This document shows, one piece after another, positions 1-20,547 of a DNA stretch of 32,000 nt. The stretch covers positions 448,357-480,356 of the forward strand of contig NZ_ATVI01000005.1 in assembly GCF_000420645.1 (NCBI RefSeq), written 5' to 3'. How positions within the stretch are numbered: position 1 is the stretch's first letter; every line of letters begins with the position of its first letter. The notes under the pieces are model-generated. The model was not told where the DNA came from and did no database searches. It saw only the letters and a program-made list of their open reading frames with translations. Origin of the DNA: Nevskia ramosa DSM 11499. GTDB lineage: Bacteria; Pseudomonadota; Gammaproteobacteria; Nevskiales; Nevskiaceae. Position numbers and translations under genes: made by a program.

Positions 1-893
1 CTGTCGAAGTCCTCGTTGATTCGAAGTTCGGTTGCCATCCGGGCAGACACCCGGTCATAGGCGGTCTGCCGCAGACTGCTGTCACGCCATTGCGCCAGAA
101 ACATCGTGGCCGCCGCCGTCATACGGGGCGGCAGCTGCATCGATTTGAAGCGATCCGGCAGGTCAGTCTGCAAAGCTGCACCGAGGTCGGATACGAACAG
201 CTGCAGCAGCAGGTTCAACAGGGATGGCGTGTCGGACCTGAATCCGAAGGTCTTGGCAGCCAGTGCCCAGAGCGGTGCTTCCAGATCCAGCTTGACGATC
301 GCCTGCCAGGCCTTTGCCTCGTTGACCGATTCTGCAGGATCCAGATCGCTCACCGATGCGAACAGGGTCGAAAACAGACTGAAGGTGTCGGCTTGGTCGG
401 CGCGCACCGCGACTGCCAGCATCTTCAGATCAAGTTCGGCTTCCAGGTCATCCTGCGTGACCCAGCGTTGCAGGCGTTCAAGCCGTGCCTTGCTGCCAAG
501 GAACCTCGCACGCAGCTTCAGGTGCTCGCTCATCTGCTGATGTCGCAGGCCGAGATCCTGCACCAACATTGCGCTCGCGTCGGCGGAGAACGGCGCGGCA
601 TAGCGGCGAATGTCCAGCAGCCAGTCACGCGTCGGCTCCGGGGCCTGCTCGTCTTCGTAGATTACGAAGGCCTGACCGGGTTCGATCAGCTCCAGCTGTC
701 GTTTCAAGGCTAGTGCCGGCACCTGCGAGCGGCGCAGCAAGGTCAAGTCTTCAAGTTGCAGCTCATCGACCAGTTCGGTGAATTGCGCTTCGGGATCGGC
801 CCACCAGATCACGCGGTGTTGCTTCGCGCGCAGTGCCAGCAGGCTTTCGCGAATCCGGCTTGCGTGCGGATTGGTTGGGGCTTCGATACTCAT
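1..893 (-). CDS. pglZ: BREX PglZ (alkaline-phosphatase superfamily), N-terminal ~297 codons; gene continues beyond the left edge
   Basis: Absent from the ORF track because it is open at the window edge. My minus-strand translation from ATG 893-891 has no stop down to base 3: MSIEAPTNPHASRIRESLLALRAKQHRVIWWADPEAQFTELVDELQLEDLTLL...TRDWLLDIRRYAAPFSAD... The W-x-D-P-E-x-x-F and DWLLDIR pattern matches my recollection of PglZ N-termini. It occupies the pglZ slot after pglX. Its ATG overlaps the upstream TGA (ATGA). Confidence 0.75.
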   Translation of the reverse strand, partial: MSIEAPTNPHASRIRESLLALRAKQHRVIWWADPEAQFTELVDELQLEDLTLLRRSQVPALALKRQLELIEPGQAFVIYEDEQAPEPTRDWLLDIRRYAAPFSADASAMLVQDLGLRHQQMSEHLKLRARFLGSKARLERLQRWVTQDDLEAELDLKMLAVAVRADQADTFSLFSTLFASVSDLDPAESVNEAKAWQAIVKLDLEAPLWALAAKTFGFRSDTPSLLNLLLQLFVSDLGAALQTDLPDRFKSMQLPPRMTAAATMFLAQWRDSSLRQTAYDRVSARMATELRINEDFD

Positions 894-1813
894 AAGCGTC
901 CGTAAGTGTCCAGAACAGCTTCCAGTCTTTCCCGCGCGGCGAGGCGCTGGGTCGTTTTCATCGTTTGCAGATTGCGCAGCTTCCACTGCACGGCCGGAAG
1001 TTCAGCAATGCGCGGGTGGGGGAAGAGCGCCCAGTCCGGCTCGCCGGCTTTCAGTGACAGCAGGAACGCCTTGTCGCGCTCCGTCATTAATTTCTGCAGC
1101 TGGTTCAGCAAACGCTCGCGTGCTGCTTCCAGCTGGTCGAGCGTCACCGGTAACACGGTCATGCCGGCGAACTGCTTTGCGTAGCTGTCCGCCAGCGGCT
1201 TCCAGCGCGGTGCCAGCAGTTCATTGATCGGCCGGCCGTGGCTGACCAGGTAGGTCAGGAAGCCTTCAAACACTGCGCGATCGAGTTCGTCGGCATCCAG
1301 CAGCAGCATCACGTCGAACCAGTCACGCGGATGCTGACGATCTAGCGCAGCGCATAGCTTGCCGCCGTAAAGATCCGGCAGTGAAAGCACCGGCACGCTG
1401 GCGAAGCCGAACTCGGTTTGCGCACGGCGCGCCAGATCGCGGACAGACGGCTCATGCAAGGTGCCGCGCAGCACCGGCGAGATCTCGACCTTGATCTGCA
1501 CGTTGCCACGGCCGACGACGATGCGGAGGGCATCGCTGCGATTCGTGTCGAGGCGTACCCGGCAGCCGGGTAGCCTTCGCTCGCATTCAGCAGCGATACG
1601 GTGCAGCGCCGCCCGCGCGTTCGGCAGTGCCTGATCCCGTGGCTCAAGCGGAAGGTAGGCTAGATCGATATCCACCGACAGCCTTGGCATATCGCGCACG
1701 AACAGGTTGATTGCCGTGCCGCCTTTCAGCCCGAAGCAGGCCTCCGCGCCGGTGAACGGCAGCACATCGATCAGCAATCGCACCTGTTCGACGTAGTACT
1801 CAGTCGCGGCCAT
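890..1813 (-). CDS. abiEii: AbiEii/AbiGii-family nucleotidyltransferase toxin (type IV TA), pair 1
   Basis: ORF track gives 890..1909. I prefer the internal ATG at 1813-1811 (MAATEYYVEQ...), which overlaps the abiEi stop by 14 nt. Motif FGLKGGTAINLF...LSVDIDLAY is the GG-T/DxD signature of DUF1814/AbiEii proteins. An AbiEi gene lies directly upstream. Confidence 0.8.
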   Translation of the reverse strand: MAATEYYVEQVRLLIDVLPFTGAEACFGLKGGTAINLFVRDMPRLSVDIDLAYLPLEPRDQALPNARAALHRIAAECERRLPGCRVRLDTNRSDALRIVVGRGNVQIKVEISPVLRGTLHEPSVRDLARRAQTEFGFASVPVLSLPDLYGGKLCAALDRQHPRDWFDVMLLLDADELDRAVFEGFLTYLVSHGRPINELLAPRWKPLADSYAKQFAGMTVLPVTLDQLEAARERLLNQLQKLMTERDKAFLLSLKAGEPDWALFPHPRIAELPAVQWKLRNLQTMKTTQRLAARERLEAVLDTYGRL

Positions 1814-2570
1814 CGACAAACCCTTTCGGTACGCTGATCTGATGGATGCGGTGAATGGCGCTGCCCGGCCAGAGGTGCCGCTTGCCGCTGCCACGATCGA
1901 CCGAAGCAAGGTCGATCCTCGACACCCAGGGATGCCGATGATGCTCGCCCAGCAGCAATACCAGCCGGGTCACGCGGACCTGAGCGCAGGCCTGCAATAG
2001 CGCTTGCATCAGGCTCGGGCGCAAGCCCATCAAGCCCTGCATCGCATGGTCCAGTGCTTCGAAGCCCGGCTCGTCGTGCACCGCATGGGCCAGTTCGAAC
2101 ACGGCGCGCTCAGCAGCGGCGATGGTGATCGACAACTCGCCGATCACATGCTTTTTGAACGAGGCATCGAGGCCGTCCAGCGTGCTGAACAGGGCCGACT
2201 TCTGCACCGACACCGGACGGGTCCAGTTTGCCTTCGCGAACCAGGTAGGCACGCGGGTCTTCGGTCTGGCGAACAGGTGGACCGGTGCTGCGCCCATTGC
2301 GATGTTCTGGCCATAGCCCAGCAGATCCAGTGCAGTCTGCCCGGCGATCCATATCGGAACGCCATCGTGCTGCAAGCCATGCACGCCACCGGGCCAGTCC
2401 ACCGATTCGCCTGCACGCGCATAGGCTCCCGTGCCCACCGGCACCAGCCAGCCACTGCGCAGGTAATGCGCGGTGAGGTTCCGGTCAATGCCCTGCGTCC
2501 GCAGCCACGCTGCCGTCACTACGGCATTCCGGGGCAGGCGCTGCAGCACAAGGTTTAATTTGGAACTCAT
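1800..2570 (-). CDS. abiEi: AbiEi-family antitoxin / transcriptional regulator (type IV TA), pair 1
   Basis: 256 aa. The N-terminal winged-HTH stretch AVVTAAWLRTQGIDRNLTAHYLRSGWLVPVGTGAYAR is typical of the AbiEi_4 domain. It overlaps the downstream AbiEii gene. Confidence 0.75.
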   Translation of the reverse strand: MSSKLNLVLQRLPRNAVVTAAWLRTQGIDRNLTAHYLRSGWLVPVGTGAYARAGESVDWPGGVHGLQHDGVPIWIAGQTALDLLGYGQNIAMGAAPVHLFARPKTRVPTWFAKANWTRPVSVQKSALFSTLDGLDASFKKHVIGELSITIAAAERAVFELAHAVHDEPGFEALDHAMQGLMGLRPSLMQALLQACAQVRVTRLVLLLGEHHRHPWVSRIDLASVDRGSGKRHLWPGSAIHRIHQISVPKGFVDGRD

Positions 2571-2571
2571 G

Positions 2572-2590
2572 GGCGTAGCGATACTACGCC
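2572..2590. promoter_or_regulatory. Palindrome GGCGTAG-N5-CTACGCC abutting the abiEi (pair 1) start codon; possible operator
   Basis: Read directly: ggcgtag (2572-2578), cgata, ctacgcc (2584-2590). It ends 2 nt before the ATG at 2570-2568, inside the 75-nt gap after the DUF932 gene. Confidence 0.3.
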
Positions 2591-2645
2591 AAAGAGAACT
2601 TCCTTAAACCAATGCACGGCGAAAATCCTTTGATGTGGACGATGC

Positions 2646-3647
2646 CTAGGCGGCTTCCAGCTTCGCAATCAGCGACGGAATGTCCCGCTGCCAGCCGCTA
2701 CGCTCATCCGCGTTGCGCCGATGCGTGGCGACCCAGGACAGCGCCTGACCGACGTCGTACAAGTTGACCACGTGGCGCACGGCACCTGGAACCGGTGCCA
2801 GCATCCCGGCGCGTTTCTTCGACGGAATAGCTTTCTCGAATGAATCCGCGAACTCGGCGTCATGCCCGGTGCGGCAAATGTGCAGCGTGCGGAAGGCTGC
2901 CAGCTTGCCCCAGGTATCGGCAACAGCCGTGTCCGCCCAGCGCGACAGGTGCTGCTGCTTGACCGCCGTCGTCGACCAGCGATGCAGCTGCTCGCGGTCT
3001 GCTGCCACGGTATTCAGCGCTTCTGGAACCAGCTGCGACAGCATCGAAATATCCAGCGAGGCGTCGTGAATCGCCCGCAGTTGCCTGAGCGACTTGTTGA
3101 TCACCAGGCCGTTCGAACACACCAACCGGTACCAGCCGAGAAACAGTTCGAGCGATGCGCCGCCGTCGACGGCATTGAAGCATTCGAAGCGCAGTCGCAG
3201 GCGGTGTTGGTCCGGCGGCACGTAATCCTTGCCTTCCGGCAGGAACATCCGGAAGTTCATCCATTCGCCGAGTGTCGTCAGGCCCAGCTGGCACTCAAGT
3301 CGATTGACGTCGAAACCGCAGCTCGCGAGCGCATTCACACAGCGCTCGGCGACTTCCTGATGCTGCGCCAGCGTGTAGGTGTTCGACACGATGCCAACCG
3401 GCATCCGTTGCTCGAATGGCGTCATCGGCAGCCGATATACCGCGCGGTAATACGGGTTGGCCGGCGCGCCGCCGTCACTGCGGAACTCGGCTAGCTCGAA
3501 CCGGGGGATATGTTTGCGGACTTGTGGCCAGTAGCCGCTGACATAGGTCACTTCGCGCGAGTGCCAGTTCGCGCTTTCGTCGGTCAGCCGAACGCCGTCT
3601 TCAGGCGGCGGGGCCGGGTTGGGCAAAAAAAGGTGACCATCATTCAT
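2646..3647 (-). CDS. DUF932-family protein (YfjQ-like), embedded in the BREX operon
   Basis: 333 aa ORF. VGIVSNTYTLAQHQEV and FECFNAVDGGASLELFLGWYRLVCSNGLV resemble the N-x-DG-S...R-x-VC-x-NG core I recall from DUF932 proteins such as E. coli YfjQ (LLNSHDGSSSY...FRFVCQNGCV). The ATG at 3647-3645 overlaps the pglX TGA at 3642-3640 (ATGAATGA). Confidence 0.7.
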   Translation of the reverse strand: MNDGHLFLPNPAPPPEDGVRLTDESANWHSREVTYVSGYWPQVRKHIPRFELAEFRSDGGAPANPYYRAVYRLPMTPFEQRMPVGIVSNTYTLAQHQEVAERCVNALASCGFDVNRLECQLGLTTLGEWMNFRMFLPEGKDYVPPDQHRLRLRFECFNAVDGGASLELFLGWYRLVCSNGLVINKSLRQLRAIHDASLDISMLSQLVPEALNTVAADREQLHRWSTTAVKQQHLSRWADTAVADTWGKLAAFRTLHICRTGHDAEFADSFEKAIPSKKRAGMLAPVPGAVRHVVNLYDVGQALSWVATHRRNADERSGWQRDIPSLIAKLEAA

Positions 3648-6600
3648 CGTTGTCGCCGCCAGTCACAGCCTTCACTTCCGCCAGCAGGTCGCCGAACTTG
3701 CCGTAATTGACCTTCACGCCATCGTCGAGATCTAGGGTGATGCGCTGGTCGGCGGCGTGGCGGAGTTTTTCGTCGAATCGACGGAGTTCTTCGAGTTGCT
3801 TGCGCAGGCTGTCCTGCTGCTTGCGCAGGCGGGTGGTGGTGGCGCTGCTGGTGCTGGCGGCGATGTCCTGGTCGAGCTGGTCGATGCGGGCTTGCAGGCG
3901 GCTTTGCAGCGGCACCACGTAGTCCATGCGCATGCGCGACAGGGTGCCGGCGTTGTAGCGGTGCAGGTAGACCAGGCACTGGAAGGCCTTTTCCTTGCCG
4001 CTGCTGAACAGCCAGTAGATCGGCCGCTTCTTGTAGGTCTGCAGGTGGTCCTTGAAGAAGCGGTCGCATAGATAGCGGCGCAGCGTGTCGCGGCTGGCCT
4101 CGCCCGTCTTCGGCGACAGGTTTTCGGCCAGGAAGCGCAGGTTCTCTTCTAGGTGCGTGGCATCCCAGGCCACCGAAATGAACTCGACCAGACGCTTGCA
4201 GGCATCGTCCTCGAACCATTCGGTATCGGTCAGCGGCAGGATGCCATCGGCATCGGCCGGGAAGCGGGTGTAGCGGCTGGGGTCGAAGCCTTCGTTGCCA
4301 CTGTGCGCGTAGATCAGTCCCGGCGCATCGAGGCTGTAGCGGCCCATCATGCAGCCGATGGCGTAGGACACCAGCTCCTGCATCGTGTCTTCGCGGAAGC
4401 GGGTCCACTGCTCTTCCTCGGTCAGCTTGCCGCCGTAGCGATAGGCTGGGTTCACCGTTAGCGTGATCTGCTCGATCGGGACTTCTGATGTCAGCTCGTC
4501 CTGCAGGCCGTAGGCGTCTATGAAGACGCGGTTGTTCTTTTCTTCGAGGCGCCGCATCTGGGCGATGGTGGCGCGGTTCTGAGTAATCCAGGCTGTGCAG
4601 CATGATTCGAGCGTTGACTTGGCTGTAGCGACGGCAACCAAGATCGGTAGAGATTGGAAGTCCCAAGAGCGCTCGTAAGCGTTCCAGTCGTTCATTGCGA
4701 TATCAATGCACGGCCTGACCACTTCAGTCGTTCTGCGCGCTACATCAACATTAATAGGCAGCTTGCCTAAAGGACCTTGCGAGTAATGAACATCTGGGCT
4801 AAGAAATCGCAGGAAGTAATCGAGGATCGGCGAGCAACCGAGTGCTAAAACGCTATAAAGATCGGAAATATTGCTCGCAAAGCACATCGGTCCTGTATGG
4901 CTGAACACGAAGCCCGGCGGAGAGAATCTTATAGAAAAACTTCCAATGCTGACGCTAGACCAAGTGACTCCCTGCTGAAAATATTTCTCTTTGTTAATTA
5001 CACGTCCATTTGATTTTACTCGTGCACCAGGGGTGCTATCAATAAATCTACAAATAGTTTCGCCATCGTTCTCATAGTTGATGACATGCTGATTGTTCCC
5101 GAACCACTTACGGAAATTTCCGCCCTTGTTTAGGGCAAACCACTTGCCCGATCGACGGGTTTCGTACGACACACAGGAAGGATGTACAAATGAGGCAACA
5201 GAGGGCTCATGCCATTGTCTTAAGAAAATTTCATCCTTTGTCGTGGCAAGCCCCTGCCGAGGCCTAGCAAAATCGTAGAGACTTGGAAATTCAGAGAAGG
5301 CTCTAATCGTCGAAGCACCGGCCCAATACGCTATTGGATTTCCGGGAATCTTTGAGAATTCAGCATTAGAGATGCTGAACCTAGTGTTTATGCGAAAACG
5401 GCGTTGTAGTTCTTCATTGCTCGCGACGCTGCCTGGCTTGTCGAATAGGCGTAAGAATCGACCACAAAATTGATGCGGTGCCCCCCGAAGCAATACATAG
5501 GAACAACTGCCAAAATCTGAGCCCCATACTCCTCGGCCATTATGTACAAGTGTCGAAATCGGGGCATCGCTTGATATGGTGTTCCGCAACTCTTCGAAGG
5601 AGGATAGGAACATCCAATTGGGAATTGTAATCATCCCGACACGACCGTTCTTCCGTGCAAAGATGACGTTTCTCTGGGCGAATGCACCATAGAGATCCGA
5701 TTTTCCGGCTGGGTAAGTACGATGTACGAAGTCCTTAAGTGGTTCGTCGTAATACTTTCCGCCCATATACGGCGGATTCGCCACAACGGAGTCATACCGT
5801 GCTGCCAGCATCTCTGCCTGTCGCGTCAGAACAGCCAACTGCGCCAGCGCCTCGAGCACGAACAGATCCTGCCCATCCGTCTCGCTCAAGCGCCGCAAAG
5901 CCGCCAGCTTGGCTGCCAGCGCTTCCGGCACGTGGATCAACGAGCCAAACGTCGTCGCATGCTCGAACAGCCCCTTCAGCGCCGTGAGGTCTCCCGAGGT
6001 CAGGCCGTAGTCCGCCAGCTTCACGCCCTGCACCAGCCGCTCGGCGTCAAAGCTTGCGCTGTCCTGCAGCGCCATCACGTTCAGCTGCACGCCTCGCTCG
6101 AACAGCCGCCGGTCGTCGGCGCGGGCCTTCATCATCAACGCGAAGCCGGTGAGCTGGGCGGCGCGGTCGTCGATGTCCAGCCCATACAGGTTCTTTTCCA
6201 GTATCAGCTTCGGGATGTCGCGCAGCACATAGCCGCGTTCCAGATAGATCGCTTTGAACAGTTCGTAGGCCTCGACCAGGATGTGGCCGGAGCCGCAAGC
6301 TGGGTCGATCAGGGTCAAGGCTTCCGGGTCTAGGCTGGCTGGCGTGATCGCCGCCAGTTGCGCCCTGACCGTTTCGGTCTGCTCGGCCGGCTCAATGTAG
6401 TAGGCCATCTGGGCCTTGAGGCCTGAATCCGGATAGGTGGCCAGCCACTGCGCGCCCAGCGAGTTCTGGACCATGTACTTGACGATCCAGTTCGGCGTGA
6501 ACAGCTGGGTGGCGGCCGGAATGTCTTCCGACTTCACGACCTTGCCGATCACTTGGTCCTTCTTTTCCGAGATGTAGAACTGGTACAGCCAGCCGATGAT

Positions 6601-7215
6601 CTCGACGTCCTGCCAGCTGGCTTCGTCGATGGCGGTGACCAGGCTGCGGATCAACGAATCGGTGCGCAGCAGGCCGTCCGGCAGCAGCAGTTCGGTGGCG
6701 TCATCAATGGCTTCGAACAGGAAGGGCATTGCGGTGTGCAGCGCGTGGCATTGGGCGAGCAGCACGGCGCGGTACAGGTCTTCATCGCGATTGCCGGCGG
6801 CCTTCCATTCCAGCGCCTGCTGGCGATCCAGCCCCGGCAGCTCGATGCGGGCCAGGTGTTCGAGGATTTCCGGCTGGCTGCTGCCATCCGGATGGCTCAG
6901 CACGCGGTAGCCGTGGTCGAGATAGCCGTGCAGCTCCATGTAGCGGATCGCGACCAGCCGGTTGAACCAGGTGTAGGCCAGTGCTTCGATGACGGACGCA
7001 TAGCTCTGCTGCTGGATGCGGGCGGCGAGCTTGCGGCGCTGCTCGGCGATCCGCGCCGGATGCGGCTGGCCGTTGATCAGCAGCACGTCGCCCTGCTGCT
7101 GGACGGTGGCCGGGTGCTCCGGGTTCAGGCCGAGCATTTCGGCGCGGCGGCCAACGGCGGCGATGAACGCCTTGCGGGCCAGCGGGGCGTAGGTTTTGAG
7201 GGGGGCGGTGTTCAT
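3640..7215 (-). CDS. pglX: BREX N6-adenine DNA methyltransferase PglX
   Basis: The ORF track frame 3640..7239 begins at a TTG. The first ATG at 7215-7213 gives MNTAPLKTYAPLARKAF... and overlaps the upstream TGA (ATGA). It has an AdoMet motif IDPACGSGHIL and catalytic motif IV VANPPYMGG (coded at 5764-5778). The ~1190 aa size and position after brxC also fit. Confidence 0.9.
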   Translation of the reverse strand: MNTAPLKTYAPLARKAFIAAVGRRAEMLGLNPEHPATVQQQGDVLLINGQPHPARIAEQRRKLAARIQQQSYASVIEALAYTWFNRLVAIRYMELHGYLDHGYRVLSHPDGSSQPEILEHLARIELPGLDRQQALEWKAAGNRDEDLYRAVLLAQCHALHTAMPFLFEAIDDATELLLPDGLLRTDSLIRSLVTAIDEASWQDVEIIGWLYQFYISEKKDQVIGKVVKSEDIPAATQLFTPNWIVKYMVQNSLGAQWLATYPDSGLKAQMAYYIEPAEQTETVRAQLAAITPASLDPEALTLIDPACGSGHILVEAYELFKAIYLERGYVLRDIPKLILEKNLYGLDIDDRAAQLTGFALMMKARADDRRLFERGVQLNVMALQDSASFDAERLVQGVKLADYGLTSGDLTALKGLFEHATTFGSLIHVPEALAAKLAALRRLSETDGQDLFVLEALAQLAVLTRQAEMLAARYDSVVANPPYMGGKYYDEPLKDFVHRTYPAGKSDLYGAFAQRNVIFARKNGRVGMITIPNWMFLSSFEELRNTISSDAPISTLVHNGRGVWGSDFGSCSYVLLRGAPHQFCGRFLRLFDKPGSVASNEELQRRFRINTRFSISNAEFSKIPGNPIAYWAGASTIRAFSEFPSLYDFARPRQGLATTKDEIFLRQWHEPSVASFVHPSCVSYETRRSGKWFALNKGGNFRKWFGNNQHVINYENDGETICRFIDSTPGARVKSNGRVINKEKYFQQGVTWSSVSIGSFSIRFSPPGFVFSHTGPMCFASNISDLYSVLALGCSPILDYFLRFLSPDVHYSQGPLGKLPINVDVARRTTEVVRPCIDIAMNDWNAYERSWDFQSLPILVAVATAKSTLESCCTAWITQNRATIAQMRRLEEKNNRVFIDAYGLQDELTSEVPIEQITLTVNPAYRYGGKLTEEEQWTRFREDTMQELVSYAIGCMMGRYSLDAPGLIYAHSGNEGFDPSRYTRFPADADGILPLTDTEWFEDDACKRLVEFISVAWDATHLEENLRFLAENLSPKTGEASRDTLRRYLCDRFFKDHLQTYKKRPIYWLFSSGKEKAFQCLVYLHRYNAGTLSRMRMDYVVPLQSRLQARIDQLDQDIAASTSSATTTRLRKQQDSLRKQLEELRRFDEKLRHAADQRITLDLDDGVKVNYGKFGDLLAEVKAVTGGDNDE

Positions 7216-8186
7216 GGTGGGTTGGCGGCGAGCAGGCAACGCGTCGCGATGTCCCGAAAGGTATTCAGGACATCGTCGAAGGCGGGGTTCTGGTTGGAAA
7301 ACAGCAAGGGGACAACGTGCTGGTCGTAGTCCGACCGATGCCGATCGGATTCGTCGAGGCTTTGCAGTGCGGCCTGAAGGGCCGATGCCGGGCTGGTCGC
7401 ATCGGTGAAACTGCGGCCATAGCTGGCGCGTTCTTCTTGGAGAACTTCGGCAAACAGGTTCACGGCCTCGTCCACGGCACCGGGGTGCCGGTGCGCGATG
7501 GCGTGAACATCATGCAGATGCCGGGCAAGCGTACGGTCCGATGGCTTGGCTGATGCTGGGTCGCGGATCTCGTCGGCCCGCCGCCGCAGCCACGCCATGA
7601 CCTTTTCGGCGAGGGTTTCGGCGATGTTCTGGCAGGGCACCTGGATCAGCGGGTTCGGGGTGTCGCCGACAAACTGGTCAACCATTCGCCAGATCGGCCT
7701 GGTTGTTGCTGGTCGCCGAAGGGTGGACAGGCGCAGTTCGATTTGCAGTTCAGGCCGCAGGGCGATGGCTTGCGCATATCGGGGGAGGTAGCGCCAGCGC
7801 ATGGTTATCTGCCGTGACTGATCGGCCTTGGTCAGCCATTGGTCGTCGGCCGGCTCGAATCCGGCGCTGGAAAGACGACCGGCGATGGCTTCGAAGACCG
7901 CCTTCATGGCTTTCGTCTGCTGGCCCCCGCTCAAATGCCCTTCCAGGTGGACCTTGATGTCGATGTCTTCCGACATGCGGGCGATGACGCCGTGACCCTT
8001 GGACAGGCTGGTGCCGCCGCAGAAGGTCAGGCTGGCGCCTGCGTTGACCGGCCAAGGGAACAGTTGGGCCAGGCTTTCGGTAACGTGGATGTCCTTTTCG
8101 AAAATCGCTGCCGTGAGACCGCCGACGTCACGTTCGGCCATCACGGCGTCGATCCGTTCAGCGTGTTCGGCTGAAATCGTTCTCAT
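7212..8186 (-). CDS. abiEii: AbiEii/AbiGii-family nucleotidyltransferase toxin (type IV TA), pair 2
   Basis: 324 aa. FCGGTSLSKGHGVIARMSEDIDIKV is the AbiEii-type GGT...DxD signature. It is preceded by an overlapping small wHTH gene. Its stop TGA at 7214-7212 overlaps the pglX ATG. Confidence 0.75.
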   Translation of the reverse strand: MRTISAEHAERIDAVMAERDVGGLTAAIFEKDIHVTESLAQLFPWPVNAGASLTFCGGTSLSKGHGVIARMSEDIDIKVHLEGHLSGGQQTKAMKAVFEAIAGRLSSAGFEPADDQWLTKADQSRQITMRWRYLPRYAQAIALRPELQIELRLSTLRRPATTRPIWRMVDQFVGDTPNPLIQVPCQNIAETLAEKVMAWLRRRADEIRDPASAKPSDRTLARHLHDVHAIAHRHPGAVDEAVNLFAEVLQEERASYGRSFTDATSPASALQAALQSLDESDRHRSDYDQHVVPLLFSNQNPAFDDVLNTFRDIATRCLLAANPP

Positions 8187-8574
8187 AGCGGACGGTCACG
8201 TTGCCGAAGCTGATCTTTCGGGAAATCCGCTTGCGCCCGGTGTTGAGCACGACTCCGGCCGGGATCTGGGTGGTGGCCTGGGCGTTGTAGCGCTGCGCCG
8301 CAAGTGACGGCCGGACCTGGACGCCGAGCTTTTTCAACGCCGCCGGTGCGAGTTCTTCCACCGGACGGACCGGGATGGGCTTGCCGGAGAGGGCGCTGGG
8401 CTTGGCGCGGGCATAGACACCCTTGCCAAGGCGAACGATGCGGCCATCCGCCTGCAAGGTCTTGATGGCGCGGCCGACCTGTTCATCGCTGCCGAGCTTG
8501 GCGAAGTCTGCGCGCACGAAGACATCGTCGCCGCGCAGGGCGATGGACCGCTTGAGGCGTTCGATGATGTTCAC
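8158..8574 (-). CDS. Short AbiEi-like winged-HTH protein, putative antitoxin of pair 2
   Basis: 138 aa with a GTG start (cac at 8572-8574). DDVFVRADFAKLGSDEQVGRAIKTLQADGRIVRLGKGVYAR resembles the AbiEi_4-type wHTH. It overlaps the AbiEii gene by 29 nt. It is much shorter than the pair-1 antitoxin (256 aa). Confidence 0.55.
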   Translation of the reverse strand: MNIIERLKRSIALRGDDVFVRADFAKLGSDEQVGRAIKTLQADGRIVRLGKGVYARAKPSALSGKPIPVRPVEELAPAALKKLGVQVRPSLAAQRYNAQATTQIPAGVVLNTGRKRISRKISFGNVTVRYENDFSRTR

Positions 8575-8659
8575 AGGCGGCGTTGTCTTCTGGAAATTTG
8601 TATTATAAATATCTGTCTTTGTTACAAAATAGTCAACAAAGAACCGTCATTGTCTTCGA
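8575..8659 (-). promoter_or_regulatory. AT-rich 85-nt intergenic region (brxC stop to abiEi-like start); candidate internal promoter/operator
   Basis: It is far lower in GC than its flanks. It holds the inverted repeat tctttgtt (8616-8623) / aacaaaga (8635-8642) and the direct repeat ttgtcttc (8583-8590 and 8650-8657). Confidence 0.35.
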
Positions 8660-11600
8660 TCATCTTATCTCGATTCGCTCGCCGCGCTCCAGCGCGGCAT
8701 GCAGCGCGCTGCGCAGCGTGGCGAGGAAGGCTTCGACCTCGGCTTCGGTGCTCAGCGCGGAACCGCTCGCCAGCTTCGCCACTTGCAGGATGTGCGGGCG
8801 TTTCAGCTCCGGCACTGGCTTGATGACTGCCGGCTCTGGCTCGTTCACCGACCGGGCAGGGGTGGTCGTATTCGGCTTGTAGGTCACCGCTTGCGCGGCG
8901 GCCGCTGCGGCCTTTGCGGCGGCTTCGGCGGCGGCTTTTTTGCGGGCGTCGAGCCAGTTGTGGATCAGGTCGATGGCTTCGTCGGCATGGCGCTCGGCGT
9001 CGTCCTTCGACAGGTAGATGTGGGCAACGCTGGCTTGCTGCTCGATGGTGGCCTTCAGCGTTTGCAGCGGGCGCAGGCAGCGGTTGGCCAGATCGGCATC
9101 GGCTTCGGCGGCGGTCAGCTCCTGCTGCACGCGGTCGATCTTGCCGGCGATGTAGTCCGTGCCTTGCTTGCGGGCGGCGGCGAGCAGTTCGTCGTTGGTC
9201 TTGCGGACGGTGGTGATCAGACCATCAACCTCCCGCAGCAGACCGTAGGGCGACGGCGCGGCCAGGATTTCCTGCATCCGGCTCAGTGCAGCCTTGGCTT
9301 CGGGCACCTGTTCGAGCTTGCCGGCGTTCGGCTTGAACTCTTGCAGCGCGGACTTGAGCTTGTCCCAAGTAGGCTTCTGGCTTTCGAAGAAGTTTTTCAG
9401 CTCGCCGTAGCTGTCGGCAGCGGCGAGCAGTTCGTTTCGGTTGGCCAGGAACAGTTCGATGGCGGCAAAGCTGTTGGCCGCAGCCAGCTGTTTGCGGGCG
9501 GCGATCAGGGTGTCGGTGATCGCCTTCGCACCGGGGTAGATGCCGCTGCTGACAAGCAGCTGCCAGCGGTCCAGCGACTGCTTCCAGGCTTCGAAGCGTT
9601 CGCGCAGAAATTCGTACAGCTTGTCTTCGCCATCCGGCCCGATGGTCTGGAACACGTCCTTCGCGAGCTGACGGGCCTTCTGCAGATCTGCCGAGGCCAC
9701 GGCCTTTCGTTTCTGTACGCGAAGGGTGCGCCAGCGGCTTTGGGTGACGATTTCTTCCCAGATGGCATTTGCTGCTAGCGGCTGGCTGTCCGCGCCTTTC
9801 ATCAGCGTCACTTCTCCGCGCATCACCAGTCGCACAACCAGCAAGACGGTTTCCCATTCCGGCCACCCGTAAGGGCGGCGGGCATAAATGCCTTCCGCGA
9901 GGTCGTGCAGCACTGGCGTGCGGGACAGGGCCTCCTGCGTCTCAAGGTGCTGCGCCACTTCCTTCATGGCACGAGGATTGGTTTCGGACGTCTGTTCGAG
10001 CCCGAGTCCAGTGGTTGGCGGCGCGCTCAGCAGCAGGCGGATTTCCTTCTGCGGATCGGCATTCAGGTGTTCGATGTAGCCGAGCTTGGAAAAGGTGTTG
10101 GCGACCAGATAGCCAAGCGCTTCGTCGAACATCGACGCCGCGTTGCTGGATTTCAGGCTCGGCTTCTGGCCCGCGACATACACATCTGCTTCCTTCAGCA
10201 GCTTGTCGAGGATGACTACGAGGCGCTTGCGTCGCTCGCGGTTCTCGTCGGCGCGGTGGCTCAGGATGGTCATCGTCGACGACGGTTGGGTGCCATCGCT
10301 CTTGCGGCTGATGTAACGATCAGTCTGCAGGTAAAGGCGCAGTTCGCGGGCCAGCGCGTCATCGTCCCGGAGGCGGATCAACACGCTGCCGTCGTTCGTA
10401 CTGCTATCGAGGATGCAGCGCGGCGGCGTGAGCTGCGCGCGGTCATCCGATAGCGGCGAAATGACCATCACGTTGAGATCGCCTTCGGTGCGGTTGCCAT
10501 GCGGATGCTGGTCGCAGGACAGGTTCAAACCGAAGTCCTTCTTGTTAGCCACATAACGGAACTTGCGCTTGTTGCCGAGCACTTCGTCGAAGATCAGCCG
10601 GGCGACTTCACGGGCTTCATCGGCGCTACTGAGGTCGACGTTTTTGATTTCCTTGCTGACGTCGCGCTCTTCGTTGGTCAGGAAGAAAAAGTCATCGCCA
10701 TTGCGGCCGACCAGATTCTGGTTTTCCAGCCGCTGTAGGCTAGCTTCCAGTTCTTGGCGCAGCGCGAGGCGATCTGCGTCTAGCTGGTCAATGAACAGGG
10801 TGATCAGGTTGTCGACCGATCCTTTCAGCTCATCGACGTAGCGGATCAAGAACAGCGTTTTCAGTACCAGTACGTCGAAGGATTTGAGGCTGGCGTTATC
10901 AGCGGCATGGTCGATGGTCGACTTCACGACACCTTCGAGAAAGCTCTCGATCGAAGGGTAGAAGCGGTATAGCGGAATCAACAAGCCGACCGACTGATCA
11001 GCAACGGCGACCGCTGCCGATTGGAAGGCATCGAGAAGCGAGCGTTCGCCACGAGCAAGGTGCAGGCCGGTGGCCCCTGCCTTGCGGATGCTTTCGAAAA
11101 TGCGCTGGACTAGCTGGAACTGGTAGGGAGCGAACGGGTAGACGGCGGCGAAGTTGTCTTCATCGGTGAAGCCCTTGAAGTTGCGGCCTGTGCTTCCGAA
11201 GCTGAGCTGGTTGCGAAGGATGTCCGCCTTGTCGCGGTAAATGCCGCGCAGCGTGGCGAGTACGTCATCCGGCTTGGCAAGCAGACGGGCTTGGATCACT
11301 TCATCGACGTTGGCGCTGGACAGCGACAGCCGCGTCTTGAAGCGGCCCTGAATCTTCGAGAAATCGTTGGCACTGCCGCCCCGCATGTCCTTGAGCACGT
11401 CGTCGATGTTTTCCTGCGAGGTGACCACTACCCAAGCGCGGCCGCCACAGACGGTGCCGAGATTTTCGGTGATGGTCTGCAGGCTGAGCATCAACTCGCT
11501 GTTCTTGCCGATGAATTGGCCGATCTCGTCGACCAGGAAGATCAGGCGGGCCTGCTTGCCCTTCTGATCGAGGTATTCCCGAACCCAGCCGGCAAAGTTT

Positions 11601-12331
11601 TCGACGGTGAGAGAGAAGCCGGTTTCGAAGCGCTGCATCCAGGCTTCTGCATCCGGGACGTCTTTCTTTAACGTGACCGATAAGGCTTTGCCGAGGGCAT
11701 CGAGGTGGAAGTTGTAGGCGTCGCGGCTGTCTTCCCAGGATTCGCCTGCTTCCAGTCGGAAGGCGTTGCGGAAGTTATCGTAGTCCTTCCTGCCGGCCAG
11801 ATAACGCTCCATGTGGGCGATGTGGGCGTGGTCGCCGCAGTAGCCCTGCATCTCGTTGAACACCTTCAGGAACACCCGAAGGATGGTGTCTCGGCCATCG
11901 GCGGCATCGGCCTTGCTGTCGATGTTGAAAAGCAGAACCTCGGCCCCGCCGCCGACGGCGCGCTTCAAGTCGCCGAACAGCATGGCGTCCTTGATCTTGT
12001 CTTCGAAGAAGCTGATGGCCTTGCGTTCGCCGCCCGCTGCGCTGACCGCTGCGCGGTTGCTAAGCAGGTAGGAAAGGATCTTCAAAAAGTGCGATTTGCC
12101 TGAGCCGAAGAAGCCGGAAATCCACACGCCCACCTTGCCGGAGGCCTCTTCCGGACGCTGCAGCGCCGACAGATAGGTTTCGAAAAAGCGACGCAGGTGC
12201 TGGTCCAGTTCACGTGTGATGACGTATTCGTCCAGTTCCTGCCAGACGGCGGCGGCATCGTTCTGATCTGCCTTGATGACACCGTTGATTGACCGGCGGA
12301 TAGGGCGGCTGAAAAGGGCTTCGATATTCAT
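8660..12331 (-). CDS. brxC: BREX ATPase BrxC (DUF499-type, PglY-like)
   Basis: 1223 aa. N-terminal Walker A context VWISGFFGSGKSHFLKILSYLL. Size and position after brxB fit. An Ala/Lys-rich linker lies near the C-terminus. Confidence 0.9.
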   Translation of the reverse strand: MNIEALFSRPIRRSINGVIKADQNDAAAVWQELDEYVITRELDQHLRRFFETYLSALQRPEEASGKVGVWISGFFGSGKSHFLKILSYLLSNRAAVSAAGGERKAISFFEDKIKDAMLFGDLKRAVGGGAEVLLFNIDSKADAADGRDTILRVFLKVFNEMQGYCGDHAHIAHMERYLAGRKDYDNFRNAFRLEAGESWEDSRDAYNFHLDALGKALSVTLKKDVPDAEAWMQRFETGFSLTVENFAGWVREYLDQKGKQARLIFLVDEIGQFIGKNSELMLSLQTITENLGTVCGGRAWVVVTSQENIDDVLKDMRGGSANDFSKIQGRFKTRLSLSSANVDEVIQARLLAKPDDVLATLRGIYRDKADILRNQLSFGSTGRNFKGFTDEDNFAAVYPFAPYQFQLVQRIFESIRKAGATGLHLARGERSLLDAFQSAAVAVADQSVGLLIPLYRFYPSIESFLEGVVKSTIDHAADNASLKSFDVLVLKTLFLIRYVDELKGSVDNLITLFIDQLDADRLALRQELEASLQRLENQNLVGRNGDDFFFLTNEERDVSKEIKNVDLSSADEAREVARLIFDEVLGNKRKFRYVANKKDFGLNLSCDQHPHGNRTEGDLNVMVISPLSDDRAQLTPPRCILDSSTNDGSVLIRLRDDDALARELRLYLQTDRYISRKSDGTQPSSTMTILSHRADENRERRKRLVVILDKLLKEADVYVAGQKPSLKSSNAASMFDEALGYLVANTFSKLGYIEHLNADPQKEIRLLLSAPPTTGLGLEQTSETNPRAMKEVAQHLETQEALSRTPVLHDLAEGIYARRPYGWPEWETVLLVVRLVMRGEVTLMKGADSQPLAANAIWEEIVTQSRWRTLRVQKRKAVASADLQKARQLAKDVFQTIGPDGEDKLYEFLRERFEAWKQSLDRWQLLVSSGIYPGAKAITDTLIAARKQLAAANSFAAIELFLANRNELLAAADSYGELKNFFESQKPTWDKLKSALQEFKPNAGKLEQVPEAKAALSRMQEILAAPSPYGLLREVDGLITTVRKTNDELLAAARKQGTDYIAGKIDRVQQELTAAEADADLANRCLRPLQTLKATIEQQASVAHIYLSKDDAERHADEAIDLIHNWLDARKKAAAEAAAKAAAAAAQAVTYKPNTTTPARSVNEPEPAVIKPVPELKRPHILQVAKLASGSALSTEAEVEAFLATLRSALHAALERGERIEIR

Positions 12332-12342
12332 GAGAATTTTCT

Positions 12343-12921
12343 TTATCCGACGAGGCGAAAGGCGCGGTAGTACGGGCTTTCGCCGAGTTCACCGAACAGG
12401 CGTAATGACTGGCCGTCGTAACGGCCGGGGTAGAACAGGACCAGGGGCGTCGCACCCATCAGCGGCTGGAGACTGTTCAGCAAGGTATGGGTGCGGATCA
12501 GCGGGTAGGCGCTGCCAACACCGGTCAGTAACAGCACATCGCAGCTGCTGGGCGGCTGGCGCTTCATCAACTCGGCAGCGACTTTGTCGGCACTCAGCGG
12601 TGCAAGCAGTGCTTTCAGCAGGGCGTCGTCGCCCTTCTTGCGCTGCATGTCGAGCGACTTTTCGTACAGGCCGCGCGCTTCGACCATGCCGATCAGCAGA
12701 TCCAGCAGATTGATACGCGCGACTCGTAGATCCGGCTTGCGCTTCGGGATCGCGTCAACCAGGAAGTCGACATGGGCTCGAACCTGTTCTTCTGCCTCTG
12801 GCGGGTAGTCGAAGGCGTAAAACGGGACTTCGTTGCCGAGGCCGCGCCCGGACAAGAATTCCGCCGATGTGATCCGATCCAAAATAGCGTTCAGTCGGAC
12901 TTCGAGCGTGGTCACGGACAT
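12343..12921 (-). CDS. brxB: BREX protein BrxB (DUF1788)
   Basis: The ORF track start at 12933 is a GTG. The first ATG at 12921 gives MSVTTLEVRLNAILDRI... VPFYAFDYPPEAEEQVR and the C-terminal SPYYRAFRLVG fit my recollection of DUF1788. It overlaps the brxA stop and lies 11 nt upstream of brxC. Confidence 0.8.
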   Translation of the reverse strand: MSVTTLEVRLNAILDRITSAEFLSGRGLGNEVPFYAFDYPPEAEEQVRAHVDFLVDAIPKRKPDLRVARINLLDLLIGMVEARGLYEKSLDMQRKKGDDALLKALLAPLSADKVAAELMKRQPPSSCDVLLLTGVGSAYPLIRTHTLLNSLQPLMGATPLVLFYPGRYDGQSLRLFGELGESPYYRAFRLVG

Positions 12922-13514
12922 ATCAGCAGGCACTCCAAAATTTGACGCTCGCCTGCGGCTTCGAGCAATTGACGGACAGCAGGTTCGATCGGGCGACGAC
13001 GCAGCGCGAGGTGTTTGGTATCGAGCACGAAGCCGGCTTCCTGCAGCATGCGCATGCCGTTCTGGCGGAGCTTTATGCGGGTCGACGCGTTGTAAGGCTC
13101 GATTTCCGGGTGCGCGCGCAGCTGCTGGTCGATGTAGTCATCCCAGGCGGTTGGCGCGAGCGCGGTTGAGAAACGACGGAACTCGTCGCGCAGAACATCA
13201 CGAAGAAATTGACCGAACAGTGGCGAGAACTTGACCGTGGCGGCAAGGGCGACGTCGGTGGCTTCGGCATGGCTGCCGTTGCGTGCCAGCTGCCACAAGG
13301 TCGTCGGCACGACCTGCAGCCGTGAGCGGGCAAGGGTGGCGTAGGTCACCGCTGTCAGGCGGGTTTTCTTCTGTAGGACGTTGTCGACTTCGATCGCCTG
13401 CTTCCAGTCCGCAGGCGAGATCCGATCCAGCAACAGCCCTGCCACGATCCGCGTTTCTGGAACGATCAGGGAGGCCTTGGTGAAGTTCGCCTTCATCGTG
13501 CGCGGAACGGCCAT
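12912..13514 (-). CDS. brxA: BREX protein BrxA (DUF1819)
   Basis: 200 aa and the first gene of the operon. The helical protein contains DNVLQKKTRLTAVTYATLARSRL...FLRDVLRDEF, which resembles BrxA. The call rests mainly on position, size and synteny. Confidence 0.7.
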   Translation of the reverse strand: MAVPRTMKANFTKASLIVPETRIVAGLLLDRISPADWKQAIEVDNVLQKKTRLTAVTYATLARSRLQVVPTTLWQLARNGSHAEATDVALAATVKFSPLFGQFLRDVLRDEFRRFSTALAPTAWDDYIDQQLRAHPEIEPYNASTRIKLRQNGMRMLQEAGFVLDTKHLALRRRPIEPAVRQLLEAAGERQILECLLICP

Positions 13515-14048
13515 TGCGGCGCCGCGTCCATGCCAGCGGCGGGCAATGCAAGGCAGCCCGCTGGCCTGCGGGGCAAGAAGAACTGAGCCATTACTCCCCG
13601 AATAAATTTTGTGGCCGATTAGCGGCTTTTCGTGAGTTTAGCCGTGCTTGTCGGCGCAGTGTTCCTGCTTGCCGGCTGTACGTGCTGATGACGGTTCTGA
13701 AGCGTGATCAAGCTCTCACGACGAGTCTGTAGCCTTCAGGAACGGAGCGGAAGTTAGGCGCGGGCATTGGGCGGCTGTTGACTCGGGTAGGCCAAAGTTC
13801 CGATTGCCTTGAAACAACTGTCGCAGTTTAGTGGTCTGCACCCCGAGCCAGGTACGGAAGGTTGGCTCTACATACCAACGACGGTACGCCTACCTCGGGG
13901 TACAGATGAAAAAGGAGACACCGGGTGGAAGTAAGGAGATTTTTGACGCCGCTGTATCCGCGACGCTGAATCTGACCTTCCCACAACCCAACGGGCCACC
14001 GTCGGGGCGGCGCCTCCCCCGCAGCATCTGGCCGGTGACGACAGAAGG

Positions 14049-14375
14049 TCAATCAGCCATCACTGATGCCATCAACGCTCGATAAGCAGCGCTTCCGGAT
14101 CGTCGACGCTCGGCTTTCGTCAGAAGCGCGCTCAGCAGACGTAGTGCATCGTCAGCAGCCTTCAAGCGCACGTCTTGGTCCGTAGGCTCCGACGCGACAT
14201 GCACCGCCCACAGACGGCCGAACGCCAGGTTGACCGACGCGCGCCAGCGCTCCGGGACGGCCCCTGCATTGTTGGCGTGGCGGCGGTGCTGCAATTGCTG
14301 CTCAGGTTGTGTGGCCTCGCCCATAAAGCACTGAAGCCGGTGGTTTCTCGATTGCATGAAGGATTTGCGACTCAT
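14049..14375 (-). CDS. Hypothetical small protein
   Basis: The ORF track 14049..14384 starts at a GTG; the first ATG is at 14375. I recognise no motif. The C-terminal half looks helical. Confidence 0.3.
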   Translation of the reverse strand: MSRKSFMQSRNHRLQCFMGEATQPEQQLQHRRHANNAGAVPERWRASVNLAFGRLWAVHVASEPTDQDVRLKAADDALRLLSALLTKAERRRSGSAAYRALMASVMAD

Positions 14376-14512
14376 CGTTCTCACCCGAATGGTTGCCGCT
14401 GGCGCTGACTCAGAAAAGCGCAGCCGACGGCCGCGCGATGCTGGCGCTCGCGAATTGGGGTTCTGGTGTGAAGCAATGACGCTACCCGGAACGGCCTGTT
14501 AGATGCCGGTCT

Positions 14513-14839
14513 TCAGCCGTCGATGACGAGCAAGTCGTGATTGAAGGTCTTGTGTATCACTCGAATATCCGCTCCGACCAGCGCCTTTATTTCCAGAGCG
14601 ATAAGCCGGCCCTCGGCATCCAGATAAACCGGGTCGAACTTTTCGGGCTCGTCAAGCCGAAGCCAGAAATGACGCTCCCAGTCGTCAATACGCTGTTCCA
14701 GCGCTTCCGGCCAGCCAAGCTCGTCCAGCCATATAGCAGCAAATGATTGATCCCAAATGCATGCGCCATAGTCAGCCATCAGGGTGATTTCGGTGATGGG
14801 GTCTGCATCCATGGCAGGAGAGGCTTGGGGCTCGATCAT
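14513..14839 (-). CDS. Hypothetical acidic Trp-rich protein (108 aa)
   Basis: The ORF reads like real coding sequence (ACIWDQSFAAIWLDELGWPEALEQRIDDWERHFWLRLDEPEKFDP). GC is lower than in neighbouring genes. No clear Shine-Dalgarno sequence and no family recognised. Confidence 0.45.
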   Translation of the reverse strand: MIEPQASPAMDADPITEITLMADYGACIWDQSFAAIWLDELGWPEALEQRIDDWERHFWLRLDEPEKFDPVYLDAEGRLIALEIKALVGADIRVIHKTFNHDLLVIDG

Positions 14840-15212
14840 CGAAATAGCTTACCCGGCATGCCGGTTCAGCAAGGCAGGGTCTTCATCGACGCTGCTCGAA
14901 GAAGTAAGAGACTTTGGGCTAACCACCGCCAGCGAACGGTATTGGTCCGACCCTCGTTCAGGTCGACGATCGGTAGCGACGAGAAATAGGCCGCGATAAA
15001 AAGGTCTAGGAAGGACGCCATACCTTCATCGTATTCCGGCCCTCTCAGGAACCGGCCCCCCAGTCGGCGAATTTTCTGGTGCTCTAGACGTTTTGAGTAT
15101 ATCGGCCGTCGAGTGCGGGTAGGTAGTGGCAAGGTTTCGCTTTAGACATCTTGTAAGTCGCCAATTTGATGCTGTCTAAACCATCGGTAGATCAGGGATT
15201 TGCGCTGATACC

Positions 15213-15494
15213 CTACGTCGGCCTTGATGGAAGCGGAGCCATTAGGAGCACGGTAATGGTCCGACCGTGCGCCGCAGCCGCACACGTAGGACACAGACCG
15301 TCCGTAGGCGTCATCCGATAGTGATGCCCCCGCTCCCAGCGCTCGCGTGTGATCCGGTGCTTTACAGCCGCTCGGCTAGTGCCGAAGCGGGCGGCCACGT
15401 CGTCAGCGTTGATTCTCCGACCGCCGCGTTCCCAATACAGCCGGGCTTCAAGCCAGATGTGCGCCGATAGGCGAGGGGTGTACGGCCGGCTCAC
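15213..15494 (-). CDS. Small putative HTH DNA-binding protein
   Basis: This is the C-terminal part of ORF 15213..15647, taken from the GTG at 15494, which overlaps the upstream TGA (GTGA). ARLYWERGGRRINADDVAARFGTSRAAVKHRITRERW looks like an HTH. Confidence 0.4.
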   Translation of the reverse strand: MSRPYTPRLSAHIWLEARLYWERGGRRINADDVAARFGTSRAAVKHRITRERWERGHHYRMTPTDGLCPTCAAAAHGRTITVLLMAPLPSRPT

Positions 15495-18404: not shown

Positions 18405-18405
18405 G

Positions 18406-20337: not shown

Positions 20338-20505
20338 TATTTGAACTCAGACCCACCATCGGACCCACCATAGGTCCTAAGGTCACATGATAGGGCTTGA
20401 GATGATATACGTCTATAAGTATTTGTTAAATAACGAATAGTGCGCACTATTGTCTGCGTCAAACCGTCTCAATTTAACTCAGAATGGCGGACGCTCTCTC
20501 CGCCA

Positions 20506-20547
20506 CACAAATGAAAAAGCCCCTTGAATGGGGCTTTTTCATTTGTG
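20506..20547. terminator. Perfect 18-bp inverted repeat with 6-nt loop; bidirectional rho-independent terminator
   Basis: cacaaatgaaaaagcccc (20506-20523), ttgaat, ggggctttttcatttgtg (20530-20547). A GC core is flanked by A and T tracts on both strands. Confidence 0.7.

Follow-up and report, generated by a model that had tools for sequence, protein, structure and literature searches.

We analysed a 32,000-nucleotide stretch of the genome of Nevskia ramosa DSM 11499 (contig NZ_ATVI01000005.1; hereafter the window, to whose numbering positions refer), which carries a type I bacteriophage exclusion (BREX) system with five additional genes embedded between its core genes, namely two pairs of AbiE toxin-antitoxin (TA) genes and one gene of the DUF932 family. 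With moderate confidence we read the locus as a type I BREX that is intact, resides on a ~25-kb integrative island and belongs to a lineage with a fixed double-AbiE scaffold and a cargo slot; the AbiE modules would come with their own promoters, and DUF932 would be cargo. The identities of the genes, their junctions, the conservation of their positions in relatives, the exchange of the slot content and the borders of the island are established by the analysis.

An eleven-gene unit and its junctions

According to the list of open reading frames (ORFs) and the read-out of the junctions, ten genes follow one another in a single direction on the minus strand (3-13514). Their families were assigned with Pfam and PADLOC (models of PADLOC-DB v2.0.0), both run on the proteins of the window. 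The series begins with brxA (12912..13514; Pfam BrxA, E 4.9e-37; PADLOC BrxA, E 1.5e-47), brxB with its ATG at 12921 (12343..12921; Pfam BrxB, E 1.4e-37; PADLOC, E 1.5e-65) and brxC, which encodes 1223 aa (8660..12331; PADLOC BrxC, 1364 bits over model positions 1-1189 of 1190, together with Pfam BrxC domains). Then come abiEi-1, a gene with a GTG start for a protein of 138 aa (8158..8574; Pfam DUF6088/AbiEi_4; PADLOC PDLC02229, 1-131 of 131, E 4e-49), and abiEii-1 of the nucleotidyltransferase toxin family (7212..8186; Pfam AbiEii, E 2.3e-35; PADLOC, E 3.1e-92, matched from residue 1). The methyltransferase gene pglX (3640..7215) codes for 1191 aa with Eco57I/N6_Mtase domains (PADLOC PglX, 1464 bits, model positions 1-1171 of 1174). 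It is followed by the DUF932-family gene (2646..3647; 333 aa; Pfam DUF932, PF06067, 41.3 bits, cut-off 23) and by the second AbiE pair, which consists of abiEi-2 (1800..2570; 256 aa; Pfam AbiEi_3_N, E 4.8e-23, and AbiEi_3, E 1.9e-36; PADLOC AbiEi, E 2.3e-71) and the toxin-family gene abiEii-2 (890..1813; 307 aa; PADLOC AbiEii, E 2e-117). The last gene, pglZ, is truncated at the window edge, where its N-terminal 297 codons remain (3..893; PADLOC PglZ, E 9e-69).

A previous interpretation made from the DNA letters alone (the sequence-only reading) had described these ten genes as a type I BREX operon expanded by AbiE and DUF932 inserts. The ORF list, Pfam and PADLOC uphold the positions of the ten genes and all of the family calls, and searches with hidden Markov models (HMMs) support the BREX, AbiE and DUF932 assignments alike. 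The count of ten holds for the window, which cuts pglZ; the whole unit is larger, as brxL lies beyond the edge. Locus L171 matches window positions 1-11813 at 100% DNA identity and extends into a full pglZ (880 aa, Pfam PglZ domain present) and brxL (681 aa), after which housekeeping genes come. Since both pglZ and brxL are whole in L171, the unit comprises eleven genes and the BREX system is complete. The six type I core genes brxA, brxB, brxC, pglX, pglZ and brxL are co-oriented in canonical order, with a full-length PglX and intact BrxC and PglZ. This the locus has in common with the type I BREX systems of E. coli, Acinetobacter and Salmonella, namely six core genes in canonical order and at full length by HMM. 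It differs from them by its five extra genes, by the lack of a BrxR-type regulator upstream and by the spacing of pglX and pglZ, which are three genes apart. None of the five extra proteins matched the PADLOC models for AriA/AriB (PARIS) or the GmrSD type (BrxU).

The nine junctions, when read from the sequence, turned out as the sequence-only reading had given them. The genes brxA and brxB overlap by 10 nt, a gap of 11 nt separates brxB from brxC, and an AT-rich gap of 85 nt lies between brxC and abiEi-1. Within the first pair the overlap amounts to 29 nt; abiEii-1 is joined to pglX by an ATGA overlap, and the DUF932 start lies over the pglX stop in the overlap ATGAATGA. Downstream of DUF932 there is a gap of 75 nt before abiEi-2, which overlaps abiEii-2 by 14 nt, and a further ATGA overlap connects abiEii-2 with pglZ. 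The start codons implied by these overlaps coincide with the points at which the PADLOC profile matches set in, namely residue 9 in the long pglX ORF, about residue 33-37 for abiEii-2 and residue 1 for abiEii-1.

Related loci were collected in a PglX scan with one genome per species, which yielded 79 loci at 48-64% identity. BrxC, PglX and PglZ were placed in each of them by tblastn, and a gap of more than 300 nt was taken as an insert. Such a gap occurs at the brxC-pglX junction in 19/69 loci (28%) and at the pglX-pglZ junction in 36/59 (61%); both junctions are gapped in 16 of 55 loci (29%), and neither is in 20 of the 55. With 50 of 69 loci insert-free at brxC-pglX and 23 of 59 at pglX-pglZ, the five extra genes are indeed additions to a compact BREX layout. 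Of 122 ORFs with 70 aa or more in the inserts, 103 lie on the BREX strand. The families found among them are ABC-ATPase systems (AAA_15/AAA_21) that match the PADLOC models for AriA, AbiL and HEC-01, as well as Schlafen/HATPase_c_4/Fic-like proteins, GmrSD, a UG5-nitrilase reverse transcriptase (DRT), PIN/MazE, Zeta and TIR. Either junction is a hot spot for insertion in general. The sequence-only reading had suggested surveying them for AbiE and DUF932 inserts: AbiE pairs, recognised by their AbiEii genes, are present in four of the 79 related loci, two per junction, and the DUF932 gene is present in none of these 79 nearest PglX loci.

It had also been claimed that the extra genes are woven into the operon by stop/start overlaps rather than parked beside it. 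They are co-directional with the BREX genes and joined to them by overlaps; this, however, is common among embedded genes. Among the related loci, the distance from the end of the insert to the pglX start is at most 10 nt for 7 of 18 brxC-pglX inserts, four of which form an ATGA overlap. At the pglX-pglZ junction, 14 of 30 inserts have their start no more than 10 nt from the pglX stop. In the literature, Payne et al. (bioRxiv 10.1101/2024.01.29.577857) described frequent embedding in BREX, DISARM, type I restriction-modification (RM) and Hma systems, with 96.7% of the embedded genes oriented like their host, and a NAR 2026 survey (PMC12839542) reported auxiliary and backup effectors within BREX operons. 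Precedents are BrxU in the pEFER BREX, PARIS in the Salmonella BREX and PrrC in type I RM. As the survey and the literature agree, neither embedding nor weaving by overlap is new.

Resident AbiE pairs and an exchangeable slot

The two AbiE pairs belong to two subfamilies, one composed of a 138-aa DUF6088-type AbiEi with its AbiEii and the other of a 256-aa AbiEi_3-type AbiEi with its AbiEii. Either pair is made up of adjacent, overlapping genes for a winged-helix AbiEi and a DUF1814 nucleotidyltransferase AbiEii. The nucleotidyltransferase motif hG[GS]...Dh[DE]h is kept in both toxin-family proteins, as G-G-T...E-D-I-D in AbiEii-1 (CGGTSLSKGHGVIARMSEDIDI) and as G-G-T...V-D-I-D in AbiEii-2 (KGGTAINLFVRDMPRLSVDIDL). 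AbiEi-2 contains both of its Pfam domains; AbiEi-1 matches positions 11-123 of the 172 in DUF6088 and the short PADLOC AbiEi model. NCBIfam returned no match for any of the four AbiE proteins. Located between core genes, on the same strand and with homologues outside BREX, the pairs are embedded defence systems in the sense of Payne et al.

Relatives of AbiEii-1 that reside between brxC and pglX share 93% (L163), 79% (L164/L165), 43% (L166) and 41% (L167/L168) identity with the Nevskia protein, and each of them is preceded by a DUF6088 AbiEi of 135-138 aa. The free-standing relatives all have 38% identity or less, namely those of Pseudomonas (L169, 38%) and Achromobacter (L170, 37%). BrxC and PglX diverge in parallel across the loci that bear AbiE-1. 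Because the relatives at 41-93% are all found in the same place, AbiE-1 has long resided in the brxC-pglX junction of this BREX lineage. Close relatives of AbiEii-2 likewise lie directly before pglZ, with overlaps of 1 to 4 nt (91% identity in L001, 75% in L163 and 66% in L174), and one at 63% adjoins a type I RM system (L172). The subfamily of AbiEii-2 is very large (7986 proteins at E<=1e-30, many of them from Pseudomonas, Halomonas and Salmonella), and the window's own AbiEii-2 matches a Nevskia ramosa protein at 100% identity. Decayed relatives of the locus occur as well. In L164 (7768-14689), a remnant of 64 aa is left of abiEii-2, and pglX is split or shortened (848 aa). L167 (8899-13000) and L168 have kept brxABC, AbiE-1 and pglX; they have no pglZ, and a RES-like ORF and then unrelated genes follow.

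The same scaffold is found in L163, a metagenome contig of 4.4 Mb, which has the order brxABC, AbiE-1, pglX, GmrSD (620 aa), AbiEi_3/AbiEii, pglZ and brxL. When its DNA is compared with the window, aligned and unaligned segments alternate. From upstream of brxA to the N-terminal part of pglX (5761-13646) the identity is 87%, and it is 93% in the pglX 3' end (3653-4368) and 77% in abiEii-2 with the start of pglZ (7-1744). The pglX centre (4369-5760; GC content 0.52-0.56) and the region of DUF932 and abiEi-2 (1745-3652) do not align. L001 contains the window's own version of the locus at ~88% nucleotide identity. The slot thus differs in content between loci that share a backbone, with DUF932 in the window, GmrSD in L163 and three unannotated ORFs in L164. 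From these alignments, brxABC-AbiE-pglX-[slot]-AbiE-pglZ-brxL is a recurrent scaffold, in which the slot directly after pglX is exchangeable. The sequence-only reading had spoken of three nested inserts. The extra genes are there, yet L163 and L164 keep the backbone and differ in the slot, and the locus is therefore better described as two fixed, lineage-resident AbiE modules plus one recombining slot.

In the comparison with L163, the recombination breakpoint falls ~70 nt inside abiEii-2, so that the cargo gene and the antitoxin gene were swapped together. AbiEi-2 shares 35% identity with its L163 counterpart (window 1745-2570 versus L163 16437-17260), and the neighbouring AbiEii-2 shares 75%. 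A separate observation concerns pglX, whose centre has a GC content of 0.52-0.56 as against ~0.62 and is unaligned to both L163 and L164, with flanking pglX parts that are 87-93% identical. It looks like a swapped target-recognition region, i.e. a change of BREX specificity by recombination.

DUF932 as a neighbour of methyltransferase genes

The protein encoded in the slot is a member of the DUF932 family by its Pfam score. Its AlphaFold2 model (pLDDT 86.6) gave Foldseek matches to phage DUF932/TIGR03299 models only (E down to 1e-11, TM <=0.65). It thus resembles the DUF932/TIGR03299 'phage/plasmid-like protein' group both in its above-threshold Pfam match and in its predicted fold. The subfamily differs from that group in sequence, sharing only 23% identity with a canonical island DUF932 along 125 aa, and in its location after methyltransferase genes in BREX and Hma-like systems. 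No match was obtained in PADLOC, NCBIfam or the PDB, where a sequence profile run against the PDB sequences was likewise blank, and PHROGs offered two families of unknown function. The subfamily was also considered as a plasmid leading-region or phage gene, which was ruled out by the absence of any tblastn match among the PLSDB plasmids and the INPHARED phages.

Homologues at 42-50% identity number 339 and are spread across phyla. The neighbourhoods of the gene were inspected in eighty metagenomic loci and two others. In 24 of these loci DUF932 lies between pglX and pglZ of a type I BREX. Of the 47 loci whose upstream flank is 1 kb or longer, 18 encode the C-terminus of PglX immediately before DUF932. 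Most often the DUF932 gene begins inside the end of pglX, with an overlap of 4 nt (ATGA) in six loci, of 8 nt (ATGAATGA) in one and of 11 nt in five. On the other side, the pglZ start lies less than 200 nt past the DUF932 stop in 11-14 loci. Thirteen further loci have DUF932 between a DUF1156 methyltransferase and a DUF499 ATPase, which is the Hma or 'BREX-related' layout, and in three loci it follows a distant PglX-like methyltransferase. Next to the remaining homologues lie genes for integrases, HsdR or unknown proteins. As an embedded gene adjacent to methyltransferase genes, the DUF932 subfamily recurs in BREX and Hma-like systems. Most likely, the protein is an independent defence or defence-modulating protein and not a core BREX subunit. 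An assignment as a core subunit, as the overlap with pglX might suggest, was dropped as the principal interpretation, since L163 and L164 hold other genes at this position within the same backbone.

Some loci deserve mention for their own sake. Hma-like loci with an embedded DUF932 gene include L123, L135, L092, L144, L089, L100 and L113, where the methyltransferase stop is sometimes overlapped by 4 nt. An Achromobacter island (L170, 12921-13883) contains a free-standing AbiE-1-type pair by an integrase and a canonical DUF932 by a YqaJ exonuclease; from this example, AbiE and DUF932 genes share islands outside BREX too. Locus L086 has copies or fragments of pglX on both sides of DUF932 (1-2511 and 5292-5753), and in L008 tandem copies or fragments of pglX occupy the brxC-pglX region (1508-5014 and 10001-13549). 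Such doubled pglX genes may represent phase-variable or shuffling methyltransferases.

Island setting, expression and competing readings

A 19-nt direct repeat, CGCTCTCTCCGCCACACAA, is located at 20492..20510, and an exact second copy is found ~580 nt past brxL (L171, ~16175); a terminator-like hairpin follows the right copy. We estimate the chance expectation for such a repeat at ~1e-6. On sequence grounds, the two copies are probable att sites that bound an integrative island of ~24.9 kb. Next to the copy at 20492..20510, a P4-type tyrosine integrase (19120-20337; Pfam) is encoded on the minus strand, as are a Toprim primase (17382-18476) and a DUF3987 helicase/primase-like protein (15769-17463), both recognised by Pfam and by primase/helicase matches in PHROGs. 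Three small ORFs on the same strand (111, 108 and 144 aa; 14049-15647) have no match in Pfam, NCBIfam or PHROGs, and NCBIfam gave none for the DUF3987 and Toprim proteins either. A strong terminator-like hairpin (14436-14418) separates two of the small ORFs upstream of brxA. The 534 nt directly upstream of brxA (13515..14048, minus strand) are free of listed ORFs and presumably include the main BREX promoter. No brxR-like or WYL regulator was found upstream of BREX in the ORF list or by Pfam on the neighbouring small ORFs. A search of the whole window for tRNA genes and Rfam elements came up empty, which leaves none of these as integration site or regulator.

It is reasonable to propose that each AbiE pair would be an autonomous type IV toxin-antitoxin and abortive-infection module, with AbiEi as a winged-helix autorepressor and AbiEii as a nucleotidyltransferase toxin. 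In characterised AbiE systems, AbiEi autorepression acts at inverted repeats. By analogy, each pair would bring its own autoregulated promoter/operator, located in the gap that precedes its abiEi gene; these two are the sole intergenic gaps of the unit in which it could lie. Gap 1 (8575..8659, minus strand), the AT-rich candidate promoter/operator of abiEi-1, contains the promoter-like sequence TTGACT-17-GATATT (8636..8608), and a perfect inverted repeat of 8 nt (8616-8623 / 8635-8642) overlaps it. An AT-rich gap of 85-99 nt precedes abiEi-1 in all five BREX relatives, and L163 and L164 preserve the -35 element and the left arm of the repeat. Gap 2 (2571-2645, 75 nt), together with a repeat across the abiEi-2 start, forms a candidate operator or RNA hairpin (2552..2645, minus strand). 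L001 retains the arms of this imperfect 27-nt inverted repeat (2552-2578 / 2584-2610) but varies at other positions of the gap. The claim that only these two gaps could hold promoters overlooks possible promoters within coding sequence. The Bacillus BREX reportedly consists of two operons, split at pglX/pglZ.

Since the toxin genes end in ATGA overlaps, transcripts and ribosomes starting from the AbiE promoters may run on into pglX-DUF932 and pglZ-brxL. The AbiE modules could add a layer of abortive infection, make the island hard to lose by addiction and provide the distal BREX genes with internal promoters under AbiEi control, and DUF932 would be the exchangeable cargo of the post-methyltransferase slot. 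Throughout this scheme, the promoters, the read-through, the translational coupling, the toxicity and the roles in defence or stabilisation are predictions. The sequence-only reading had offered a layered defence or a TA-mediated stabilisation of the operon; both are plausible, and the sequence decides for neither.

Several points weigh against this mechanism. In gap 1, L163 and L164 do not preserve the -10 region, and a promoter scan over 14.5 kb returned 2 sites versus 2.8 expected from shuffled sequence, i.e. no excess. As the Acinetobacter BREX is transcribed as one mRNA from one promoter, internal promoters are not required. With its 138 aa, AbiEi-1 may lack the C-terminal antitoxin domain of the Streptococcus AbiEi, for which reason its antitoxin role is an assumption. 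The existence of decayed relatives means that the AbiE modules are not indispensable, and their conserved position could reflect shared descent alone.

The same data can be read differently. The AbiE pairs might be selfish TA passengers of permissive junctions, which stabilise the island and have no role in defence or BREX expression, and the overlaps would be ordinary operon compaction. The junctions do take many unrelated cargoes, other TA-type genes (PIN/MazE, Zeta) among them, abutting joints are frequent for any insert, the AbiE-2 subfamily is huge and widespread, and decayed AbiE copies exist, as in L164. We nevertheless consider this rather unlikely, given that AbiE-1 has been retained in the identical junction down to 41% identity as BrxC and PglX diverged in parallel, and that the AbiE systems of Lactococcus and Streptococcus are experimentally established abortive-infection systems. 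A second alternative, a coupled backup as envisaged by the sequence-only reading, would have AbiEii arrest the cell once labile protection fails after a phage inhibitor such as Ocr or a SAM (S-adenosylmethionine)-degrading enzyme blocks BREX or shuts off host transcription. The linkage of the toxin genes to pglX and pglZ by overlaps, which relatives share, speaks for it, as do the published precedents of PrrC in type I RM and of BrxU and PARIS in BREX. Yet no sequence feature ties AbiE sensing to BREX proteins, and the same AbiE subfamilies occur outside BREX, free-standing in L169 and L170 and beside a type I RM system in L172. The coupling, moreover, runs from the toxin gene to the BREX gene and not in reverse, so BREX failure alone would not shift the toxin/antitoxin ratio. 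This makes the coupled backup quite improbable in our view.

As to the slot, DUF932 may be more than free cargo, namely a dedicated methyltransferase partner that modulates PglX activity or specificity or acts as a sensor via PglX. This idea is consistent with the PglX C-terminus directly upstream in many loci and the short start/stop overlaps, with the 13 loci between DUF1156 methyltransferase and DUF499 ATPase and the three behind a distant PglX-like methyltransferase, and with the absence of the subfamily from the phage and plasmid collections. We find it possible but doubtful, because the gene is missing from all 79 nearest PglX loci, L163 and L164 have other genes in the slot of the same BREX backbone, some homologues adjoin integrase, HsdR or unrelated genes, and the post-methyltransferase position is a hot spot for any cargo. 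A more far-reaching version, in which DUF932 works with the methyltransferases of BREX and Hma/DUF499 systems by tuning or guarding methylation or by sensing anti-methyltransferase factors, AbiEi is co-opted to regulate pglX and pglZ-brxL, and all eleven genes form one integrated system, appears unlikely to us. The scaffold with two resident AbiE modules and an exchangeable slot remains our preferred reading.

Like published embedded systems, the Nevskia genes sit among the core genes at the same two junctions, are oriented like these and include known abortive-infection cargo. They differ in that AbiE occurs twice, in two subfamilies, next to a DUF932 gene without a defence annotation, and in that the AbiE pairs are conserved lineage residents, not sporadic inserts. 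With the AbiE systems of Lactococcus and Streptococcus agalactiae they share the bicistronic organisation, the overlapping genes, the catalytic motif and an upstream inverted repeat in an AT-rich gap; differences are the predicted translational joining of the toxin gene to a BREX gene and the short 138-aa DUF6088 form of AbiEi-1. In those texts on embedding that are searchable, AbiE and DUF932 are not named, and the searchable supplements of Payne et al. contain AbiE strings only in the AAA_21 Pfam description. Nor does the searchable part of the literature describe the methyltransferase association of this DUF932 subfamily. The statement that the exact architecture is undescribed thus holds for the combination, which is not named in that literature, and not for the principle, as the locus is a well-preserved instance of the described embedding.

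Two leads are genuinely new: the lineage-fixed double-AbiE scaffold with its exchangeable slot, and the association of DUF932 with methyltransferases in BREX and Hma-like systems. The DUF932 subfamily, which has no entry in PADLOC-DB v2.0.0 and no solved structure, is nominated as a candidate partner or embedded defence gene of methyltransferase-based immunity. With AbiE modules fixed at the junctions, natural variants that differ only in the cargo slot and a bounded, clonable island, the locus represents a clean natural test case for how embedded genes are expressed and whether they cooperate with their host system.

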